A program made the translations under genes and the position numbers. DNA of 64,000 nt, taken from NCBI GenBank assembly GCA_003566775.1, contig PXBW01000079.1, positions 18,635 through 82,634 on the forward strand, given 5' to 3'. This document shows positions 45,810 through 64,000 of the stretch, piece after piece; positions within the stretch are counted from its first letter, which is position 1, and every line of letters begins with the position of its first letter. The notes beneath the pieces are model-generated. The model was not told the origin of the DNA. It made no database searches and worked only from the letters and a program-made list of their open reading frames with translations. Source of the DNA: a candidate division WS1 bacterium. Lineage in GTDB: Bacteria > Armatimonadota > Zipacnadia > Zipacnadales > UBA5352.

Positions 45810-47105
45810 ATGAACCGGCTGGTCATGATGGCTGCGGCGATGTCTCTGTGTACGGCCGTTATCGCGCAGGACAATCCCTCGCCCCCTGAGGAACCGTCCC
45901 GCGTGCTGGCCATCGTCGAGGACACTGAGATTAGCTCTGATGACCTCTGGTGGTTTATGGAGCAGACGCGCGGGGGCGATATACTCGATGAACTGATACT
46001 GAGCCGACTGCTTGACGCAGAGGCGAAGCAGAAGCAGATCAACATCGGGGAGCCGGATGTGGACGAGGCGCTCGCCCGGTTGCGGGAGCAGTATGCCACT
46101 GAGGAGGAATTCAGCCGCTGGCTGGCAGAGAGCGGTCAGACACTCAAGGGGCTCAGGATGCAGTTGCAGCAGGAGCTTCTCATCGACCGCCTGCTGGAGG
46201 AGCGCATGGGGCTCACCGATGAGGGTATCCGAAGATACTACGAATCACATCCGCACGAGTTCACCGAGGAACCGCGCGTACGTCTGCTGGACATAGTGAC
46301 AGACACGATCGCCGACGCCTTCGCGGCGCGTGAGCGGCTGGCCGCTGGGGAATCTTTCGCCGAAGTTGCGCGCGAGATGTCGCAGGACCCAACCGCCAAG
46401 GAGGGCGGCGATCGTGGCTGGCTCACGCCCGAGGACGTTCGCAATGCGGATCTGCGTGAAGTCATATTCGAGTTGCAGGAGGGCGAGGTCTCCGATCCGA
46501 TCGAAGCGGTGGATCACTTTCACGTGCTCTATGCGCGGGAGGCAGTTCCCGGCCGCCTGCCGGATCTGGAGGAGGTGCGCCCGCAGGTGATTGAGCGTAT
46601 CCGTGAGCGGCGTGGCATCTCGGAGGAACTCTTCCTGGCACTGCTCAAGCGCCGTGCCGAGATCGAGGTCAGATGGCCCGAGCATCAACATCTAAACGAC
46701 TACTACGCCGATCTGAGCAGAATCAAGGTCGTTGTCGATGATCGGCGCGTCGAGGTTCCGGTGGAGCCGCGTCTGCTGCCGAACTCGAATCTGATAGTGC
46801 CGGCTCAGCCTCTTCTCGAGGCGATGGGCGCTGACGTGGCGTGGAGCGAGGAGGCCGGTGTGCTGGAGGTGCGGCGGGATGGCGTCACTCTCCGCATGGT
46901 CCAGGGCCTCGATATAATGGCCACGGGTGAAGAGGAGCGACGGATGCCGGAGCCGGCGCGACGGGAGGACGGCGTGCTGATGATCTCGCCGCGCGCGCCC
47001 GTATCTGCACTCGGCGGCGAGCTTTTCTGGAACCGCGCGGACAATACTTTGTATGTTAACTCGTACATCGACGATACGGTCGGAGAGATGAACGAACTCC
47101 CGTAG
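45810..47105 (+). CDS. secreted SurA/PrsA-like parvulin peptidyl-prolyl isomerase with C-terminal Cu-amine-oxidase-N-terminal-like domain
   Basis: Signal peptide MNRLVMMAAAMSLCTAVIAQ. SurA-like chaperone N-domain. PpiC/parvulin motif (VAREMSQDPTAKEGGDRGWL). C-terminal domain (IVPAQPLLEAMGADVAWSEEAGVLEV) resembling the Cu_amine_oxidN1 beta domain. AAGGAGAG RBS before the ATG at 45810; the ORF track starts at 45480. Confidence 0.65.
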   Translation: MNRLVMMAAAMSLCTAVIAQDNPSPPEEPSRVLAIVEDTEISSDDLWWFMEQTRGGDILDELILSRLLDAEAKQKQINIGEPDVDEALARLREQYATEEEFSRWLAESGQTLKGLRMQLQQELLIDRLLEERMGLTDEGIRRYYESHPHEFTEEPRVRLLDIVTDTIADAFAARERLAAGESFAEVAREMSQDPTAKEGGDRGWLTPEDVRNADLREVIFELQEGEVSDPIEAVDHFHVLYAREAVPGRLPDLEEVRPQVIERIRERRGISEELFLALLKRRAEIEVRWPEHQHLNDYYADLSRIKVVVDDRRVEVPVEPRLLPNSNLIVPAQPLLEAMGADVAWSEEAGVLEVRRDGVTLRMVQGLDIMATGEEERRMPEPARREDGVLMISPRAPVSALGGELFWNRADNTLYVNSYIDDTVGEMNELP

Positions 47106-47277: not shown

Positions 47278-48729
47278 TTGGCCCACTCCAGCCCCCAACC
47301 AGCGGAAGTACCGGTCCTGCGTATACTGCACGAGCGCCCGGACGAGTGCGCCCACCGCACGCTTACGCGGGGGCAGGCACTCGCTGTCCTCTTCATCCTC
47401 GCTCTACTGATCGCTCTGATCGCCTGGCGGCCGCTTGCGAGCCTGATCGTCCTGAACGCTCTCGCCATCATCTTCTACGTTGTGCACTCGCTATACAAGT
47501 TCTACCTCGTATATGTCTCGCTCGAGCGTCCAGTCCTGTTCGACGCAACTGAGGATGAACTACGCGATCTCGACGAGGCGACGCTGCCCACCTACACCCT
47601 GCTGATTCCCCTGTATCGCGAGGCCGCGGTACTGCACAGACTCGTTCAGGGCGTCAGAAACCTCGACTACCCCGTCGAGAAGCTTGACGTGATGCTTCTG
47701 CTGGAAGAAGACGACACTGAGACGATCGCTGCCGCGGAGGCCATGGATCTTCCCCCACACATTCGGCCCGTGGTCGTGCCCGACAGTGAGCCGAAGACCA
47801 AGCCGAAGGCCTGTAACTACGGGCTCTTCACCTGTGAGACCGATCTGCTGGTCATCTACGACGCCGAGGATCGGCCTGAGCCGGATCAGCTCAAGAAGGC
47901 GGCCATCGCATTCCGTCGCGCGCCCGATGACGTGGTATGCATTCAGGCGAAGCTCAACTACTACAACCAGCGGCAGAATCTGCTCACCCGCTGGTTCACC
48001 GCCGAGTACTCCGTCTGGTTCGACCTCTTCCTGCCCGGACTGACGGCCTCCGGCGCGCCCGTGCCCCTTGGTGGCACCAGCAATCACTTCCGCGTCGATG
48101 TGCTGAAGGAGCTTGGCGGCTGGGACCCGTTCAACGTGACCGAGGACTGCGACCTCGGCGTGCGCCTGCACAAGCACGGCTGGCGCACCGCGATGCTCGA
48201 CTCGACCACCTGGGAGGAGGCGAACGGGGCGTTCTTCTCGTGGTTCCGCCAGCGCTCGCGCTGGGTCAAGGGTTACCTGCAGACATGGCTTGTGCATACG
48301 CGCAGACCGCTTCGAATCATCAGCGAACTCGGGCTCGCGGGCTGGTTCTCTTTTCAGATGACTATCGGCGGCTCGCTCGTATGTTTCCTGATCAACCCGA
48401 TCTACTGGGCGATGACGATCTACTGGCTGTTCACACACGCAGGCTTCATCAGCGTCCTCTTTCCGCCCGCGATCTACCTGCTGGGCAGTTTCTGCCTCTT
48501 CGGCGCCAACTTCGTCTTCGTGTATATGGCCGTCGCCGGATGCATGCATCGGGGGTACTACGACCTCGTGAAGTACTCCCTGCTCACTCCCGTTTACTGG
48601 CTGATGATGAGTATAGGGGCGTACAAGGCCTTCGCGCAGATCATCGTACGCCCGCATTACTGGGAGAAGACCGACCACGGTATCTTCGAATTCGAGGATG
48701 CCGGGTTCGACGACGGTGATTCCGCATGA
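47278..48729 (+). CDS. membrane-embedded family-2 glycosyltransferase (processive, cellulose/chitin-synthase-like, QxxRW motif)
   Basis: N-terminal TM helices. GT-A catalytic core with DAED (DxD) and TED. FRQRSRW (QxxRW) motif. Several C-terminal TM helices. 483 aa. Confidence 0.8.
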   Translation: MAHSSPQPAEVPVLRILHERPDECAHRTLTRGQALAVLFILALLIALIAWRPLASLIVLNALAIIFYVVHSLYKFYLVYVSLERPVLFDATEDELRDLDEATLPTYTLLIPLYREAAVLHRLVQGVRNLDYPVEKLDVMLLLEEDDTETIAAAEAMDLPPHIRPVVVPDSEPKTKPKACNYGLFTCETDLLVIYDAEDRPEPDQLKKAAIAFRRAPDDVVCIQAKLNYYNQRQNLLTRWFTAEYSVWFDLFLPGLTASGAPVPLGGTSNHFRVDVLKELGGWDPFNVTEDCDLGVRLHKHGWRTAMLDSTTWEEANGAFFSWFRQRSRWVKGYLQTWLVHTRRPLRIISELGLAGWFSFQMTIGGSLVCFLINPIYWAMTIYWLFTHAGFISVLFPPAIYLLGSFCLFGANFVFVYMAVAGCMHRGYYDLVKYSLLTPVYWLMMSIGAYKAFAQIIVRPHYWEKTDHGIFEFEDAGFDDGDSA

Positions 48730-50294
48730 CCGAGCAGCGACATGGACCGGCTGCAAGCTCCGCACCGGAGCGGCCGGAAGCACGTCTGCGCCGCTTCGAG
48801 CTTCCGATCGTCTTCCTTCTGGGCGTGGTGCTTACACTCGCGGTCGGGTTGCGCGGTCGCCTCGTAGACCTCCAGGTCAACTGGGACGCCCTCGCAGCGG
48901 TCGCGCATGCCTATGACGTATTTAACGCACAGGACTACGCGAATCTCGCCATGATCGGTTTCGTCCAGCCACCGCTCCCCACGCTGTTGCAGCTTCCGCT
49001 GGTGCTGATGGCGCCCTCACTCGCAACGTCGGGCGTCGCGGCGAACGTTCTCGGAGCGATCTACGCCGGGACGTCGGCTGCGCTTATGCTTGGCCTCGCG
49101 GCGGAGTGCGGTCTGTCCCGCGCCCTGCGCTGGCCATTGGTGGCGCTCTTCGCGCTCCACCCGCTTGTGCTCGGCCCGGCTGCGTCAGGAGCCCCGATGG
49201 CTCTGCTGACCACCCTGCTTCTCGGCGCGTCGTGGAGCATGCTGCGCTGGGCGCGCACTGAGGCTCTGCGAGACCTTATCGCCTCCAGCGCTCTCCTCTC
49301 CGGCGCGGTCATCACCCGCTATGAGTCCGTATTCGTGGTCGTGGGCGTCCTGATCTACCTCGCCTGGTGCACATGGCGAAAGGACAGGTCGGGCAGGAAG
49401 CTTGAGGGGACATTGATTGCCTTCACCTTGCCCATCGCATACGTCGCGGGCGTCTGGATCATGTCCAACTGGGCGATTATGGGCGATCCATGGCACTTCC
49501 TCCGTGAGACTTTTGATGCTCGCGTGGTGCCTCCGGGGGCCAGAGTGTTCTCTATTGTCGTAAGCACGTCGCTGCTGGCGTTCTTCCCGGTGCTTGCCCT
49601 GATCTACCATCAGATGCATGGAGCATGTCGATATCCGGCGGACGCGCGGCCGGTGGCATGGATGGTGCTTTCCGTGCTCGTGGCCCCGATGGTCTTCCCC
49701 GCGGCATTCGTGCTGCCGGGCGCGGACGGCCACTGGGCAAGCCTCTCCACCGTTCTCGCCATGGTCCTTGCGGGCGGCTATGTGATGCTTGCCTCCATCA
49801 TCGGCGATCTCATGCAGGGAAGAGGGAGACGGGCGCTGGGCATCAGCGCTGTGGTTCTGGTGGCCGGACTCGGAGCAGCCGCATGGCTCTACGCCGGTGG
49901 AGCCGCCGCTGCTCTCTCGCCCGCGCGCATTCTGGCCGGTCACAGCCCGCTGGCCGACACGGCGCGTGCCGAGATCGAGGCGGCAGATCTTCTCCGGGAT
50001 ACGACGCTTCCCCCGGGACAGAAGCACCTCATCGCAGGATGGCCGGGCTTCGCGGTTGTGCTCTTCGCCGGGAGGACGGGCGAGATGGTGGTGATCCGAA
50101 CTCCTGAATTGCTGGAACGCATCGACGCCCTCTGGGCGGGCAGCCGTCTGGTGCTGCTCGTCACCGATGAGCCCGGCGCGGTGCCGCCCGCCGCTGTCGA
50201 CGCAGACCTTGGTCTCCCCCCTGATCTCACGCTGCAGCGCGAGTGGGTAGCGGGACCCTGGCACTGCTACCGGGTGGTGAGAGCGGCCCCGTAG
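48726..50294 (+). CDS. polytopic integral membrane protein (possible GT-C-type glycosyltransferase or polymer-export partner of the upstream GT2)
   Basis: 522 aa, 10 or more predicted TM helices. Start overlaps the GT2 stop (ATGA). The coincident antisense ORF 49185-50348 I judge to be an artefact. Confidence 0.5.
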   Translation: MTEQRHGPAASSAPERPEARLRRFELPIVFLLGVVLTLAVGLRGRLVDLQVNWDALAAVAHAYDVFNAQDYANLAMIGFVQPPLPTLLQLPLVLMAPSLATSGVAANVLGAIYAGTSAALMLGLAAECGLSRALRWPLVALFALHPLVLGPAASGAPMALLTTLLLGASWSMLRWARTEALRDLIASSALLSGAVITRYESVFVVVGVLIYLAWCTWRKDRSGRKLEGTLIAFTLPIAYVAGVWIMSNWAIMGDPWHFLRETFDARVVPPGARVFSIVVSTSLLAFFPVLALIYHQMHGACRYPADARPVAWMVLSVLVAPMVFPAAFVLPGADGHWASLSTVLAMVLAGGYVMLASIIGDLMQGRGRRALGISAVVLVAGLGAAAWLYAGGAAAALSPARILAGHSPLADTARAEIEAADLLRDTTLPPGQKHLIAGWPGFAVVLFAGRTGEMVVIRTPELLERIDALWAGSRLVLLVTDEPGAVPPAAVDADLGLPPDLTLQREWVAGPWHCYRVVRAAP

Positions 50295-52672: not shown

Positions 52673-54688
52673 CTACTCGCGAACCAGTGCGGGAGCGGGC
52701 GCGAAGTAGTGTATGATGATCCAGATCGTCAGGATGACGCTCACCCCGAGGATCAGGCCGAAAGCGATCGGCCGCAGCTTCTGGAAGCCCCGATAGCCTG
52801 CAACGCGAACAACCAGGACCTTCCAGAGCCACCCGAGGAAGATCGACATCCAGTAGCGATCGGTCGGCCAGCCAAGCCACGCGATATACCCCAGCGGATG
52901 CAGCGGCCACCAGACGAATCTTCGTCGGAGGGCAACAAGACCCCAGGTGAGTAGAGCGCCTCCACCCATCGCCGCCCACTCAACAGGTGCCATGGTCGTG
53001 GGGGACTGAATGTACCGCACCAGCATGTTTGTGGTGTTCAGGGATGCGCCACTCGGCCACCAGCCAAGCTTCGGCACTCCCCAGGAGTAGATGATGTGAA
53101 GCGAGGTCACATGGCTTGCAAGGATCGCCACGACCACCGCCGCCATCCCCGCGAAAATGATCTTGCGGCGATCCGCTCCCATCACCGAACCGATCTTGAG
53201 GCCCTGGGCTACGGCGCCCATGTTCATCGTTGCTGTGGAGCGAATCTGAGTCCAACTCGTCATGGTCATCAGCGTCATGTTCTGAGCCCCGATGCGCTCC
53301 GGACCGGCAATCTCGAAGATCGCCTCGTTGATCCTGAACGGTGTTGAGTATATGAACATGCCGCCCTCGGCGACCACTCGGGCCACGACCATTCCCGCCA
53401 GCGGGAAGGCTATGTACTGAGCCAGCGCCCATGTCAGGTCCATGCCCACCCAGGTGCACCACCAGATGATGAAGATGAAGGCACCCACAAAGCCGAGCAC
53501 CGCAAGCCGATAGGGTTCATCGGCGTCGGCCGCACCCTCGCGGGGTCTAATCGCACCGATCGCGATCCTTACGGCTCGCCGTACGTGATCCCGTGCCGAC
53601 CAGAGCAACGCGCCGGCCATTAATATGTAGGCTCCTATCGTCTGAAAGCGGAAGAATTGCGCGTGCCCCGTGTCAACTCCCACGCTCATCCGAACGAACT
53701 CCTGTATACGCCGGAACCAGTAGAAGAACCAAAGCGAGAAGCCGACCTCGGACGTGAGAAGATAAGCGACCCCTACCATCTCCGGATACAGATGGATGGG
53801 TATGCGGTTGAATGCGGCCCAGGGGCCTCCCAGCGTCGCTTCAGTCGTTCGCTGCAGGTCGATATCCGGCAAAGCAGGCCAGTAACCGTGCAGGCCCTTG
53901 ATCGTAAACAGAATCACTGGCACTGCGAATGCCACCCACATCATGGGGCTGCGGATCAGTTGCGAGGCGACTGCAGGCTCACCCTCGACCGTCTCCACCG
54001 GTACCTCTACCAGCGGATACAGGAGGCGCTCCTCTCTTTCCCAGCGATGTGCCAGTATGGCCATGAAACACAGCACCAGCCAGTACACCGCCAGTATGAA
54101 TGGCGTCCAGACGGTTAGGGGCGTGATCCACGCTCGCCACGGAACGCTTTGCCCGGGCGGCAATCCCTCGAACGCCCAGCGAATCGCCGGGGCCTGCGGG
54201 TTCGTGTCCGGCACCAGCATCGGGTTGAGCTGCTCCAGATACAGCTCCGGTGGAGCAATCTCGGGAGTTGCGTAGTAAACAATGCCGAGCGTGTTGAGGT
54301 AGAAGTGCTGGGCGAACTCCTGACCCGCGATGGCGCCCGCCACCATCAGCATCAGGAACACCAAGAGCAACTCGCGGGCGGTGAGCTTCCATCGCCGCGT
54401 TACCCGTCCGACCAGGCGCAGCGCGGCATTCCCACCGAGCAGGGCGAGAAGTATGAAGACTGCGCCACGCGGCAGGTAGCCGGTTCCTATGATCTCGTAG
54501 CGCAGGAATACACCAAAGCAGCCCACCACGGTGAAGGCAACCACCATCACCAGTCCTACAGTTATCGCGCGAACCGTTACGCCTGTGTGTTCAGTGCCGT
54601 GAACTTCCTCACGCGCGGTTCGCGACAGCTCTACCTTATCCTGAGTTGACAGACCCGACACCTCACTTGTGACATCGAGCTTTGGCAA
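52673..54688 (-). CDS. large polytopic membrane protein of unknown function (671 aa)
   Basis: About 16 predicted TM segments rich in Trp/Tyr. No recognisable family motif. Confidence 0.55.
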   Translation of the reverse strand: MPKLDVTSEVSGLSTQDKVELSRTAREEVHGTEHTGVTVRAITVGLVMVVAFTVVGCFGVFLRYEIIGTGYLPRGAVFILLALLGGNAALRLVGRVTRRWKLTARELLLVFLMLMVAGAIAGQEFAQHFYLNTLGIVYYATPEIAPPELYLEQLNPMLVPDTNPQAPAIRWAFEGLPPGQSVPWRAWITPLTVWTPFILAVYWLVLCFMAILAHRWEREERLLYPLVEVPVETVEGEPAVASQLIRSPMMWVAFAVPVILFTIKGLHGYWPALPDIDLQRTTEATLGGPWAAFNRIPIHLYPEMVGVAYLLTSEVGFSLWFFYWFRRIQEFVRMSVGVDTGHAQFFRFQTIGAYILMAGALLWSARDHVRRAVRIAIGAIRPREGAADADEPYRLAVLGFVGAFIFIIWWCTWVGMDLTWALAQYIAFPLAGMVVARVVAEGGMFIYSTPFRINEAIFEIAGPERIGAQNMTLMTMTSWTQIRSTATMNMGAVAQGLKIGSVMGADRRKIIFAGMAAVVVAILASHVTSLHIIYSWGVPKLGWWPSGASLNTTNMLVRYIQSPTTMAPVEWAAMGGGALLTWGLVALRRRFVWWPLHPLGYIAWLGWPTDRYWMSIFLGWLWKVLVVRVAGYRGFQKLRPIAFGLILGVSVILTIWIIIHYFAPAPALVRE

Positions 54689-60338: not shown

Positions 60339-61403
60339 ATGAGCTATCAGATCCAGCTACCTGATGGAGCATACCACGTCGTTACCGCGCCGGAGCACTG
60401 CGCGTGGCCAAACCTTACGCTGATGCCGAATGGAGAGATCGGCGCGGTGATCTACAGCAAACCCAGCCACGGCTGGGACGAGGGCGATCCGGAACTCTGG
60501 GTCAGCTCAGACGGCGGATTCACCTGGGGCTGCCGCAGCGAGGTAACGCAACATCATCCTCCCACGGTGCGCATGAACGTGGCGGCGGGGCTCAATCCGG
60601 ACGGGCACCTCGTCGCGCTGGTGAGCGGCTGGACGCTCGGCGAGGAACGCGACGGCCGCGGCGTGGTGCTCAAGCCATGGGTGAGCATCTCCACCGACAA
60701 CGGGCACACGTGGGAGCACGCGGGCGAGGTCGCGCCGTCAGAGATTGAGGGCTTCGAGGGCGAGCCGGTCCTGATCCCCTTCGGCGACGTCTGCGTGACT
60801 GGCGACGAGTGCGTGGTAAGCTGCTACGGCTCGTCAAGCTGGGAGCAGGACATCGCCCACCACTCGGTTCTCCTGCGCAGCAGCGACGGCGGCCGCACAT
60901 GGGGCGACGTGTCGGTAATCGGCGCGGAAAACTACAACGAGACCGACCTGCTGATCCACTCAAGCGGACGCTGGCTGGCGCTGGCGCGGACAAAGAGCGT
61001 CATCAGCGAGGACACCGGGGGCGCACACGGAGCAAATGTGCGTCTGATGGTCTCCGAGGACGAGGGCCGGACATGGGAGTTCGCGCTCGAACTGAGCCGG
61101 CCGAGCCAGCATCCCGGACATCTGCTGGAGCTTGCGGACGGGCGCATCCTCGCGAGCTACGGGAACCGCATCCCGCGCTTCCGCGGCGTGATGGGCCGCA
61201 TCAGCGACGACGCGGGTGAAAGCTGGTCGGCGCCCTTCGTGATCGTCGGCGGGCTGCTGGAGGGCGACTGCGGCTATCCGTCGAGCGTGCAGGTCGAGGA
61301 CGGGGAGATCGTCACCGCGTATTATACCAACGCCGCGCCGTGGCATCAGCGCTATCACATGGGAGTGGTGCGCTGGAGCCTCGATGCTGTTCCTTGTGAT
61401 TAG
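60339..61403 (+). CDS. BNR-repeat sialidase-like (GH33-like beta-propeller) protein, cytoplasmic, second copy in window
   Basis: Five Asp-box motifs (SSDGGFTW, STDNGHTW, SSDGGRTW, SEDEGRTW, SDDAGESW). No signal peptide. GGGGAGG RBS. Confidence 0.7.
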   Translation: MSYQIQLPDGAYHVVTAPEHCAWPNLTLMPNGEIGAVIYSKPSHGWDEGDPELWVSSDGGFTWGCRSEVTQHHPPTVRMNVAAGLNPDGHLVALVSGWTLGEERDGRGVVLKPWVSISTDNGHTWEHAGEVAPSEIEGFEGEPVLIPFGDVCVTGDECVVSCYGSSSWEQDIAHHSVLLRSSDGGRTWGDVSVIGAENYNETDLLIHSSGRWLALARTKSVISEDTGGAHGANVRLMVSEDEGRTWEFALELSRPSQHPGHLLELADGRILASYGNRIPRFRGVMGRISDDAGESWSAPFVIVGGLLEGDCGYPSSVQVEDGEIVTAYYTNAAPWHQRYHMGVVRWSLDAVPCD

Positions 61404-61431
61404 ATAGGCTATTGTCGCTTCGCCCGCGTCG

Positions 61432-62400
61432 CTAACCTCGCCGGAAGGGACGCGGGCGAGGAATCAGGTCATCGGAGTCCGGCGGACCCTCCAGCCCCTC
61501 GGGAGCATCATATTGCACGAACATATTTCGGAACCGCAGGTAGTGCTCGTGCCAGCGGTCATATGTTGTCATGCCGTCGTGACGGACCCCGAGAACGTAG
61601 TTGATGTCCTGCTCGGGCAGGCGGACTTCAACCCATGAACGCACGTAACTGTCGGCGGGACCCGCCACGTCCGTGAAGCTGGTCTCCCGCCTGTTGCGAC
61701 CTGTGCCTTCAGTGAATGACTCGCTTCCCATGAGGCTCTCTCCCGGAGCGAGCTTCGTCCATCCCGGCTCGCCCGACCGTCGCGGGGAGTAAACGTAGAA
61801 CTCGATCGCTCCGCTCGGCGTGCCGAAGGACATTCCATCCGCATCATAGCTGTCCGACTCGGGTGCGGAATCATAGCCGAGCGGTTGGAACTCCACCGGA
61901 TAGTCGATGTCGAACCATGGCCCGCGGTAGGTAAGCCAGCCGTCACCGAGCACCGCTACGCGAAGCTCCATTCCATCACCACCTTCAGGTGGCTTCAGGG
62001 TGAGGCTCCTTTGCCGGAACTCGACGGTCGTGCCGAATGCCTCGGCCACGAAGCGGGCCGGAACGTAGGTGATCTGGGCCAGCGTCAACGGCGCGCTGTC
62101 GAGCACTATTGAACGCCCGTTGATGGACGCGGTGCTTGATCCCGGCTGCAGTCGCACCGTTCTGTCAGCGCTCTCAATGATGATAGTTCTCTCCTGCGGT
62201 TCCCAGCCGACCTCGGCTCCCAGCCACTCGGCGGCTGCGCGAATCGGTATCAGGGTGTGTCCGCCATCGAGAACGGCGATCGCCGATCCATCGTCGTTGG
62301 CGGCGAAGAGGGGTAGCGAGACGATCAGCAGTGCGACGATAACCAGACCTGACCCTGCGCGCACGGCGGGCACCTCCCGTTGATCTGTCGCTTCCCCCAT
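61432..62400 (-). CDS. secreted protein: Cu-amine-oxidase-N-terminal-like domain plus conserved C-terminal domain of unknown function (paralog A)
   Basis: Signal-peptide-like LVIVALLIVSLPLFAA. Cu_amine_oxidN1-like segment (AIAVLDGGHTLIPIRAAAEWLGAEVGW ... ITYVPARFVAEAFG). C-terminal block YRGPWFDIDYP...EFYVYSP shared with the downstream paralog. Confidence 0.6.
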   Translation of the reverse strand: MGEATDQREVPAVRAGSGLVIVALLIVSLPLFAANDDGSAIAVLDGGHTLIPIRAAAEWLGAEVGWEPQERTIIIESADRTVRLQPGSSTASINGRSIVLDSAPLTLAQITYVPARFVAEAFGTTVEFRQRSLTLKPPEGGDGMELRVAVLGDGWLTYRGPWFDIDYPVEFQPLGYDSAPESDSYDADGMSFGTPSGAIEFYVYSPRRSGEPGWTKLAPGESLMGSESFTEGTGRNRRETSFTDVAGPADSYVRSWVEVRLPEQDINYVLGVRHDGMTTYDRWHEHYLRFRNMFVQYDAPEGLEGPPDSDDLIPRPRPFRRG

Positions 62401-62503
62401 CCGCGATTGCTCATTTTCCGGCGGTCCGGGCAGCGGCCCCGGCGAGACGGACGGCCTGCCTCATTTGCGCCCGGCAACGGCCGCATCAGGCGCAACGATC
62501 GGC

Positions 62504-63367
62504 TCAATCGGCGTACTGCACCAGAGAATTGCGAAAACGACGGTAGTCGTCGCGCCAGCGTTCGTACGTCGCAAGCGTGTCGTAACGGATGCCGAGATAG
62601 TACTTGACGTTAAGCTCGGGCTGATGCACTTCGATCCAGGACCGCGTGTAGTCATCGGTCGGCCCGGTGACAGTCACCCAGGTGAGCTTCTTCCGCTCGG
62701 GCCCGTGACCCTCAGTGGTCGAGTTGCGGTCGAAGAGCATCTCGCCCGGTGCGACCTTCGGCCACTGCGGATCGCCGGACCACTGAGGCGAGTACACGTA
62801 GAACTCGACCTTTCCGTCGGATGACCCGAAGCGCATCCCGTCCTCGTCGTATCCATTCGATTCTGATGCGCGATCGAAACCGAGGGGGCGGAAGCTCGCC
62901 GGGTAGTCTATGTCGAACCACGGTCCACGATAGGTCAGCCAGTCATCCTTGAGCAGGGCCACCCGCAGTTGCATCTGCTGCCCTCCGGTGGGGGGATAGA
63001 GTGTCAGCAGCCCGTCGTCGAAATCAGGCGTGGCCCCGAATGCCTCAGTCACAAAGCGAACCGGCACGTAGGTCACGCCGGCGAGGACCTTCGGAGGGGT
63101 GTCAAGCTCTACCTCCTCTCCGTTGACCTGTGCCGTCTCTGAGTCAGGCCGCAGCTTCACCATAGTGTTCGCGCGCCCTATCTCGACCGTATCGTTCTCA
63201 GCGTCCCAGGAGACGCCGGCACCCAGCCACTCGGTAACGGCCCGGATCGGCGCGAGAGTGCGACCGCCATCGAGGACGGCCACCGCGGAGCCGTCCTCGT
63301 TTGCGGCGAGAGTGGTGGTGGGGGGAAGCAACAGCATCACACCGATTAGAGCTGAAGCGAAGCGCAT
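62504..63367 (-). CDS. secreted protein: Cu-amine-oxidase-N-terminal-like domain plus conserved C-terminal domain of unknown function (paralog B)
   Basis: Start at the ATG at 63367 (MRFASALIGVMLLLPPTTTLAA) with a GGAGGTG RBS. About 50-55% identical to paralog A over the full length. The ORF track extends to 63757 through an implausible leader. Confidence 0.6.
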   Translation of the reverse strand: MRFASALIGVMLLLPPTTTLAANEDGSAVAVLDGGRTLAPIRAVTEWLGAGVSWDAENDTVEIGRANTMVKLRPDSETAQVNGEEVELDTPPKVLAGVTYVPVRFVTEAFGATPDFDDGLLTLYPPTGGQQMQLRVALLKDDWLTYRGPWFDIDYPASFRPLGFDRASESNGYDEDGMRFGSSDGKVEFYVYSPQWSGDPQWPKVAPGEMLFDRNSTTEGHGPERKKLTWVTVTGPTDDYTRSWIEVHQPELNVKYYLGIRYDTLATYERWRDDYRRFRNSLVQYAD

Positions 63368-63524
63368 GGCACAGCACCTCCGTGTCTTCGAACAGTCCCC
63401 CCGGAGTGATTGTTCCACCTCCAGCGAGAATCTCCTCGTGCAGATCCGAGGTGCCTTCGCGCTCTGCGTCGAACTGCCGCTGCGTTGCAGATGGATCACG
63501 CAGTTTGATTCGGAGGCGCGGCAA

Positions 63525-64000
63525 TGTCTGAGTTTCTTGTACAGGACGGTCAGACGTACATCTTCCAGGGTGACTCGATCACGGACGCCACCCGCCGTGG
63601 GGCCAATGCGCCCTTCGGTACCGGCTACGCGAAGTTGACCGTGGATCTGATTACCGCGCAATACCCCGAGCGCAGGATTCGATGGATCAACAAGGGGATC
63701 GGGGGGAATCGCGTAACGCAGCTTGCCGAGCGCTGGACCGATGATGTGATTCGCCACGAGCCTGACTGGGTCTCAATCCTCATCGGTATCAACGACGCGC
63801 ACTCGATGCTGCGCCGGATGGAGCCGATCGTACCAGTGGAGCTTTATCGGGAGAAGTACGACGAGATAGTCTCCCGCACCATCGCCGAGACCGGAGCGCA
63901 GGTGCTGATTATCGACCCCTTCTACATGAGCATCGACGGCTCCGGACAGGACTGGCGCACGGTGGTCCTCGAGGCCCTGCCGCGGTACATCAAGGTCGCG
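63525..64000 (+). CDS. SGNH/GDSL-family hydrolase (N-terminal part; continues beyond window)
   Basis: ATG at 63525 after a GGAGG RBS. YIFQGDSITD block I (catalytic Ser), GIGGN block II, and GIND block III of the SGNH family. Open to the window end, hence absent from the ORF track. Confidence 0.7.

Follow-up and report, generated by a model that had tools for sequence, protein, structure and literature searches.

Two adjacent genes, here called A and B, lie near the end of a 64-kb stretch of DNA (the window) from a candidate division WS1 bacterium of the phylum Armatimonadota. Both encode proteins with a signal peptide, an N-terminal PF07833 (Cu_amine_oxidN1) domain and a C-terminal domain that is predicted to adopt the PsbP/Mog1 fold and defines a large family that had no name. 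We are confident of this structural description; what the proteins do is a matter of graded probability, and is weighed below.

Genes A and B and their flanks

From the GDSL/SGNH hydrolase gene, which diverges from B, the order continues with B, A, BNR_2 (convergent) and phosphoketolase; A and B and all of their features are on the minus strand. Gene B (62504..63367) encodes 287 amino acids (aa) from an ATG that is also the start in the public gene call, and has a ribosome-binding site, GGAGG (63377..63381), read by eye 9 nt upstream. Its signal peptide (aa 1-21; 63305..63367), likewise read by eye, is MRFASALIGVMLLLPPTTTLA with predicted cleavage before AN; the PF07833 domain covers aa 29-119 (63011..63283) and the C-terminal domain aa 132-287 (62507..62974), so that LVQYAD is followed directly by the stop codon. 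The longest open reading frame (ORF) of gene A spans 61432-62400. The public gene call and a ribosome-binding site, GGGAGG (62373..62378), read by eye 8 nt upstream, favour the GTG at 62364, from which the gene (61432..62364) encodes 310 aa. The signal peptide of A, MRAGSGLVIVALLIVSLPLFA with predicted cleavage before AN, is typical as judged by eye, and the PF07833 domain (aa 30-120; 62005..62277) and the C-terminal domain (aa 132-285; 61510..61971) follow in the same order as in B. At its end, A has QYDA and then a 25-residue acidic, proline-rich extension, DAPEGLEGPPDSDDLIPRPRPFRRG (61435..61509), in place of the almost invariant -AD-COOH end of the family.

The two proteins are identical at 157 of 285 positions (55%; gap-free BLASTP alignment, E 8e-116), and the divergence is even along the chain, with 55% identity in the N-domain and 57% in the C-domain. 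These values agree with the initial annotation, which had put the tandem paralogues at about 50-55% identity and had seen a signal peptide in each. It had also listed three strongly conserved blocks; two, WLTYRGPWFDIDYP and EFYVYSP, are common to A and B, but LGVRHDG is confined to A, and its counterpart in B is LGIRYDT. Neither protein contains a cysteine, and the G+C content at third codon positions (GC3) of the two genes, 0.72-0.76, is similar to that of neighbouring genes. In a local hidden Markov model (HMM) scan of all six frames, the window contained exactly three PF07833-type domains and two copies of the C-domain; the third PF07833 domain belongs to a peptidyl-prolyl isomerase (PPIase), described below. 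A, B and the PPIase are found unchanged in public data, in one NCBI contig of 117.5 kb and three metagenome assemblies. Pfam gives PF07833 alone for A and B, and neither protein has an SLH, LysM, PG_binding or SH3b domain or a sortase signal. The 139-nt spacer between the genes (62365-62503, minus strand) is GC-rich and has a strong predicted fold (-60.8 kcal/mol, calculated without a shuffled control) and no T-run. A search of 61200-63700 for promoters and terminators found no matches, nor did scans of the whole window for Rfam families and tRNAs.

The nearest relatives among species-representative genomes come from Armatimonadota metagenome-assembled genomes (MAGs) and show 62-64% full-length identity to B. 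Three related MAGs (L001-L003) have a single gene at the place of the A and B pair; both flanks are common to the window, L001 and L003, while L002 shares the BNR_2 flank. On these comparisons, B is assigned as the conserved orthologue of a gene that is single-copy in other Armatimonadota MAGs, and A as a diverged tandem duplicate, with 48-52% identity to the orthologues. At the 32 positions of the C-domain family with 80% conservation or more, A departs from the most frequent residue 11 times and B 3 times. The substitutions in A include W196R, Y262H, S281M and L282F, as well as SPRRSG where the family has SPQWSG, and A is one of the 12 among 185 domain instances whose domain does not end at the protein C-terminus. 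A is not a pseudogene, as the ORF is intact, GC3 is 0.72 as in neighbouring genes and the gene is called in public data. This intact, called state makes relaxation or neofunctionalisation of the copy probable.

The flanking genes were also characterised. The GDSL/SGNH hydrolase gene (63523-64000, plus strand) runs past the end of the window; its product starts MSEFLVQDGQTYIFQGDSITD and has no signal peptide. This gene and B diverge from a common intergenic region of about 155 nt, an arrangement that is kept in L001, L003, L023 and L024. The BNR_2 gene (60339-61403, plus strand), convergent with A, encodes a sialidase-like beta-propeller that also lacks a signal peptide. The same protein scores 32.6 bits against Pfam Tli3, a family of type VI secretion system (T6SS) immunity proteins with a sequence cut-off of 27, and no single stretch of it passes.

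The PF07833 domain and the parvulin PPIase

The assignment of the N-domain to PF07833, proposed in the initial annotation, was borne out by HMM search (E about 1e-26). The scores are 90.6 bits for A (E 7.8e-26) and 93.7 bits for B (E 8.7e-27), and these, like that of the PPIase, pass the gathering cut-off of 24.2 bits. The domain resembles the D1 ('stalk') domain of the Escherichia coli copper amine oxidase (PDB 1oac, 1d6u) both in structure and in sequence; A and B differ from that enzyme in lacking its catalytic domains, as NCBIfam NF011285 reaches 21.7 and 29.4 bits, against a cut-off of 1278, by matching the N-terminal domain alone.

The PPIase gene (45810..47105, plus strand) encodes an exported parvulin-type protein of 431 aa with a SurA/PrsA-like layout, to which a public protein is 100% identical. 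That this protein ends in the same kind of domain as A and B, as the initial annotation had claimed, is confirmed by a PF07833 match of 47.3 bits (E 2.3e-12; 45480/45810-47105), with the domain at 46731..47057 (plus strand). Its parvulin domain is clear (Rotamase_2, 66.8 bits against a cut-off of 27; Rotamase, 52.6 against 21.7). SurA_N (27.8 bits, cut-off 30.8) falls below threshold and the NCBIfam equivalogs do so by a wide margin (SurA, for example, with 47.7 bits against 394), so we describe it as a parvulin PPIase with a SurA/PrsA-like layout and not as a demonstrated SurA. Fusion of such a PPIase to PF07833 is a conserved architecture, kept in 43 Armatimonadota clusters at 44-100% identity. 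As the PF07833 domains of the PPIase and B are 22% identical, they represent one Pfam family rather than a recently shared module.

The occurrence of the domain in both kinds of protein had been taken as a hint of a shared envelope-anchoring mechanism. Our results do not support this, given the low identity, the lack of any anchor domain and the behaviour of the domain in the protein where it has been studied. PF07833 is known to co-occur with peptidoglycan-hydrolase domains in the surfaceome of Desulfotomaculum reducens (PMC4137172). PaSOD of Paenibacillus lautus (PDB 8IMD), a Cu/Zn superoxide dismutase, resembles A and B in layout, with a signal peptide, PF07833 and then an unrelated exported cargo, and its PF07833 N-domain is a homodimerisation module (PMC10432803). 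This is the sole biochemically studied PF07833 domain outside the oxidases, and it is a dimerisation module and not an anchor; neither of these two studies demonstrates anchoring to the wall by PF07833.

Other genes near the PPIase gene were also observed. A family-2 glycosyltransferase gene (47278-48729, plus strand; Glyco_tranf_2_3, E 2e-31, with QRSRW read by eye) lies directly 3' of it and is overlapped by 4 nt by a gene for a 522-aa protein with no Pfam match (48726-50294, plus strand); these two may form an exopolysaccharide or envelope module. Further along, a gene for a 671-aa protein (52673-54688, minus strand) contains DUF6785 (E 5e-123) and DUF6784.

An unnamed domain family with a PsbP/Mog1 fold

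Assignment of the C-domain by sequence was tried with Pfam, NCBIfam, phmmer against the PDB and a 13-sequence profile against the PDB. The C-terminal 155 aa or so of A and B had no match in Pfam, NCBIfam or PDB sequences, with noise alone at E>0.2; the C-domain gave no Pfam or NCBIfam match at E<=1, and the profile of 13 members found no PDB chain at E<=10. The view that the C-domain falls outside the named sequence families is therefore upheld in these libraries, and it matched no known enzyme family. Its description as novel does not extend to the fold. A predicted model of the domain, built from 13 sequences, is of good quality (predicted local distance difference test [pLDDT] 86.8, predicted template modelling score [pTM] 0.83) and combines a hairpin at the N-terminus and an antiparallel sheet with a single long helix at the C-terminus. 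Foldseek places this model with PsbP and CyanoP at probability 1.0 and TM scores of 0.52-0.60. On the predicted models, from which all of our fold assignments derive, the domain has the known PsbP/Mog1 fold; by sequence comparison, it is outside every named family of that fold, including PsbP, Mog1, DcrB/DUF1795, Lpp-LpqN and Tli4_C. The model of full-length B (pLDDT 87.6, pTM 0.80) has a structured junction, with a strand at 111-119 and pLDDT of 79-87 for residues 103-119 of the mature protein. Given this junction and the pTM value, the model fits a fixed two-domain body better than beads on a string.

Several known proteins share the fold. PsbP, CyanoP and PsbP-like proteins (PDB 2xb3, 1v2b, 4rth) and Mog1 are alike in structure, with structure-based identities of 6-16%; the C-domain family differs from them in having no Pfam match, non-photosynthetic hosts, a signature of its own and a fixed Q[YF]xD-COOH end. 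The T6SS immunity proteins Tsi3 (4luq_C, 3wa5_B) and TplEi/Tli4 (5h7y) and the Tli4_C domain of PA3488 (7wdk_B) are also alike in fold and show no sequence similarity. Unlike these proteins, A and B have no recognised T6SS or effector gene adjoining them, and the C-domain family is much better conserved, and its members stand alone much more often, than is typical of immunity proteins. The mycobacterial proteins MTC28, Apa and LpqN, as well as DcrB and TiME, have a similar fold, come from different phyla and have no sequence relationship to the family. Finally, the uncharacterised BT_1490 of Bacteroides thetaiotaomicron (PDB 3hlz) is 10% identical and adds no mechanism. Where the function of a named protein among the structural matches has been characterised, it is that of a binding, immunity or chaperone protein and never that of an enzyme; the remainder are uncharacterised.

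The family is sparse but spreads well beyond the Armatimonadota. A word-indexed search found at least 11 homologues, all of 160-225 aa and without Pfam domains; this search missed B, which is itself a representative in that collection, and its counts are hence lower bounds. When 1.84 billion cluster representatives were searched exhaustively with a profile, the family amounted to 543 representatives at 50% clustering, 481 of them below 1e-10 and 262 below 1e-30. Among species-representative genomes, there are 22 loci. Eight are in Armatimonadota and 14 in other phyla or classes (Gamma-, Alpha- and Deltaproteobacteria, Patescibacteria, Acidobacteria, Bacteroidota, Ignavibacteria, Spirochaetes and Verrucomicrobia), and the named hosts include Crenothrix polyspora, Phyllobacterium lublinensis and a Mesorhizobium with a truncated copy. 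The typical member is a small standalone secreted protein with a signal peptide or lipobox. The suggestion of a lineage-specific surface protein family thus does not hold for the C-domain; as assigned from these searches, restriction to a clade of the Armatimonadota applies to the PF07833 fusion only. A mobile-element origin was rejected, as tblastn of family members against 72,556 plasmids and 50,697 phage records found no matches.

Variation in architecture is found around this standalone form. An N-terminal PF07833 fusion is present in P0017, P0026, P0036 and P0043, as assigned by Pfam, and in P0087 by eye; P0156 carries two C-terminal SH3_3 domains; and P0012 and P0035 contain the domain duplicated in tandem within one protein. 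Some members have long linkers or additional domains without assignment. Four others (P0056, P0061, P0062 and P0075) have a cytoplasmic N-terminal region and four to five predicted transmembrane helices, with the domain then placed outside, a layout reminiscent of transmembrane signalling or anti-sigma-like proteins. The cytoplasmic region of P0062 contains repeated CxxCGSxxHxxxDCPHG zinc-knuckle-like units, and P0075 has a YARHG domain ahead of the C-terminal domain.

The sequence signature of the family is rigid. In 183 sequences, positions that are at least 80% conserved give Y.GAWF.I.YP..F / D...F.SPDG.VEFYV.SPQW.G.P / P.E / W.TI.AKDGSY.RS / VFGIKY....AY..Y...Y..FK.SL.Q[YF]xD. Two residues (B numbering), P156 and E209, are 100% conserved, and F189 (99%), R242 (98%), D287 (98%), S193 (93%) and D176 (87%) are nearly invariant. 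The conserved positions are chiefly aromatic residues, proline and glycine, with a few serine, aspartate, glutamate, arginine, glutamine, lysine and threonine residues and no histidine or cysteine. One unusual feature is at the C-terminus. The domain ends within three residues of the protein end in 173 of 185 instances, and the last aligned residue is aspartate in 179 of 183 proteins; the tails, corresponding to B residues 284-287, are QYAD in 76 proteins, QFAD in 41 and QYSD in 8, with others alike. A free C-terminal aspartate seems to be required in the family, where it may serve as a structural plug, as a recognition signal or within a binding site.

A candidate exported binding module

The explanation that we favour, with a modest degree of confidence, is that A and B are exported binding modules. 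They would be Sec-exported, soluble, cysteine-free two-domain proteins in which domain 1 consists of one unit that resembles the amine-oxidase D1 domain and domain 2 is an extracytoplasmic non-enzymatic binding module of a sparse but widely spread family. In this part of the proposal, that the C-domain binds rather than catalyses, we have somewhat more confidence than in the whole. A putative surface of tyrosine, tryptophan, arginine, glutamate and aspartate residues, together with the obligatory free C-terminal aspartate, may recognise one conserved envelope partner. The PF07833 domain may dimerise the protein, hold the C-domain at the wall, or both, and its fusion to the C-domain would be the same solution as that seen in the parvulin PPIase of the phylum; dimerisation is proposed because the PF07833 domain of PaSOD mediates it (PMC10432803). 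B would retain the ancestral function, and A may pair with B via the common N-domain. A partner that cleaves peptidoglycan is our favoured candidate, and one that we hold tentatively, since we consider this identity doubtful; the module would then inhibit this enzyme, or confer a kind of immunity to it, much as Tsi3 does. The wall is suggested by SH3_3 and PF07833 fusions, which elsewhere accompany wall-active proteins (PMC4137172 for PF07833). The immunity-like role is suggested by Tsi3, which confers immunity to the muramidase Tse3 and has the same fold (PMC3792639).

Gene neighbourhoods provide some clues to a partner. This context evidence is drawn from about 30 loci of about 540 family clusters. 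In an all-against-all BLAST of ORFs within 6 kb at the 22 genome loci, just the clade-level synteny with the GDSL hydrolase and BNR_2 genes and one proteobacterial cassette recur. A Pfam search of 19 same-strand neighbours gave functions unrelated to one another (Laminin_G_3, galactokinase, phosphoglucomutase, PD40, PASTA, URO-D, PQQ_2, bestrophin-like, FGE-sulfatase, H+-PPase and ankyrin). URO-D was rejected as a recurrent neighbour, the proteins being without meaningful similarity (E 0.002). BNR_2 is too weak as a candidate partner: it recurs after a standalone family gene in L030, yet is only 26% identical there, and the orientation differs, being convergent in the window but co-directional in L030. 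The cassette is found in Crenothrix (L019, 6280-8561) and Phyllobacterium (L020, 7077-9286), and consists of a gene for a 281-aa protein, the family gene and a gene for a PG_binding_1 protein; the last two overlap by 4 nt in L020. The 281-aa protein has no signal peptide and no family match, and PDB and NCBIfam searches with it were empty. The third protein shares 37-41% identity (E 1e-52) with phage endolysins that carry an L-Ala-D-Glu peptidase annotation, and H-x6-D and DWMH motifs can be read in it by eye. It is not assigned to M15 by Pfam, as Peptidase_M15_4 reaches E 0.56-0.61 only; from the similarity to the endolysins and from the two motifs, we class it as an endolysin-like L-Ala-D-Glu peptidase homologue. 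Because the flanking genes are 70-80% identical between a gammaproteobacterium (L019) and an alphaproteobacterium (L020), recent horizontal transfer of the cassette is suggested. In a Mesorhizobium (L022, 7041-8291), the 281-aa gene (80% identical) stands with a truncated family gene, and the endolysin-like gene was not detected.

A second type of locus is represented by same-strand arrays of unrelated genes in L026 (1-10141) and L029 (53-5584), each of which includes one family gene. The array products are nearly all small, and all of those in L026, and most of those in L029, have a signal peptide or lipobox. Both arrays contain ankyrin-repeat proteins, and L026 also contains an SH3_3 protein (a faint match) and a DUF3298 protein; in a spirochaete locus (L017), an ankyrin protein is encoded directly upstream of the family gene. 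Ankyrin-repeat proteins and PsbP/Mog1-like domains are among the components listed for heterogeneous polyimmunity loci (PMC3482391). The L026 and L029 arrays look like polyimmunity islands, and no toxin was identified in either.

Several observations weigh against a binding module directed at a peptidoglycan hydrolase. In the neighbourhoods of the loci examined, no partner gene adjacent to the family gene is kept across phyla, and no recognisable peptidoglycan hydrolase, effector or secretion system lies near A and B in the window. The full endolysin cassette is present at 2 of the 22 genome loci (L019 and L020), with a remnant in L022, and its family members are the farthest from A and B, at about 30% identity. 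The likeness of the arrays to polyimmunity islands has appearance as its sole basis. Immunity proteins usually evolve fast and adjoin their toxin, while the signature of this family is unusually rigid and its members are mostly solitary.

Of the other explanations, the foremost is the view of the initial annotation, which we nevertheless judge unlikely, namely that PF07833 is a common envelope or wall anchor that tethers varied cargo, such as the C-domain and the PPIase, and that A and B are lineage-specific structural or surface proteins. All three PF07833 domains of the window belong to exported proteins, the PPIase fusion is kept across its 43 clusters, the fusion to the C-domain occurs in at least five representatives at 50% clustering, and in a Gram-positive surfaceome PF07833 occurs together with peptidoglycan hydrolases (PMC4137172). 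However, the C-domain is not confined to one lineage and in most members stands without PF07833, the PPIase and B domains share only the 22% identity noted above, and Pfam finds no SLH or other anchor domains. Moreover, direct evidence for wall binding by PF07833 is absent, and the study of PaSOD found dimerisation instead (PMC10432803). A role in envelope biogenesis rather than conflict, with the C-domain as a carrier or sensor of a lipid or small envelope molecule in the manner of LpqN/Mtc28 or DcrB, has a somewhat smaller chance of being correct. The shared fold is set against the lack of a sequence relationship to either family, and no MmpL- or Lol-type transporter is present among the conserved neighbours.

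The fold is also that of accessory or assembly subunits of membrane complexes, as PsbP, CyanoP and PsbP-like proteins are for photosystem II and NDH. We consider such a role highly improbable for the C-domain, as its hosts are non-photosynthetic and very diverse, Patescibacteria included, no PsbP match is given by Pfam, and no conserved complex genes are nearby. Last in order, and equally remote, is the possibility that the C-domain represents a new enzyme, such as a hydrolase acting through its conserved Ser-Pro, Glu and Asp residues. The complete conservation of P156 and E209 and the near-invariance of F189, R242, D287, S193 and D176 would fit an active site, but conserved histidine and cysteine are absent, the conserved positions are mostly aromatic or structural (glycine and proline), and there is no enzyme among the characterised proteins of the fold that were matched.

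The binding-module explanation can also be taken to a more specific form, which we regard as improbable: the C-domain may be a widespread and conserved protein inhibitor of endolysin-type or L-Ala-D-Glu (M15-like) peptidoglycan peptidases. The rigid SPQW.G loop and the free C-terminal aspartate would plug the active site of the enzyme, and soluble, lipid-anchored, transmembrane or PF07833-fused forms would shield the sacculus from injected or phage-derived lysins. If true, this would make the family a peptidase counterpart of the lysozyme inhibitors Ivy, MliC/PliC, PliI and PliG.

In summary, the PF07833 part of A and B and the PPIase are ordinary, and the C-domain is an undescribed family inside a known fold class, to which fusion with PF07833, duplication in tandem and the rule for the C-terminal end add new details. 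At present, the work annotates an uncharacterised family with care and offers no new mechanism, and the find is real but modest. It defines a domain family that had no library name, with about 540 clusters at 50% identity, a clear signature, a confidently predicted fold and a few candidate partners. If the link to peptidoglycan hydrolases is true, the family would represent a new class of envelope-protecting inhibitors. Armatimonadota reuse PF07833 on at least two unrelated exported cargos, a PsbP-fold domain and a parvulin PPIase, and are hence a good place to learn the role of this common and poorly understood domain.

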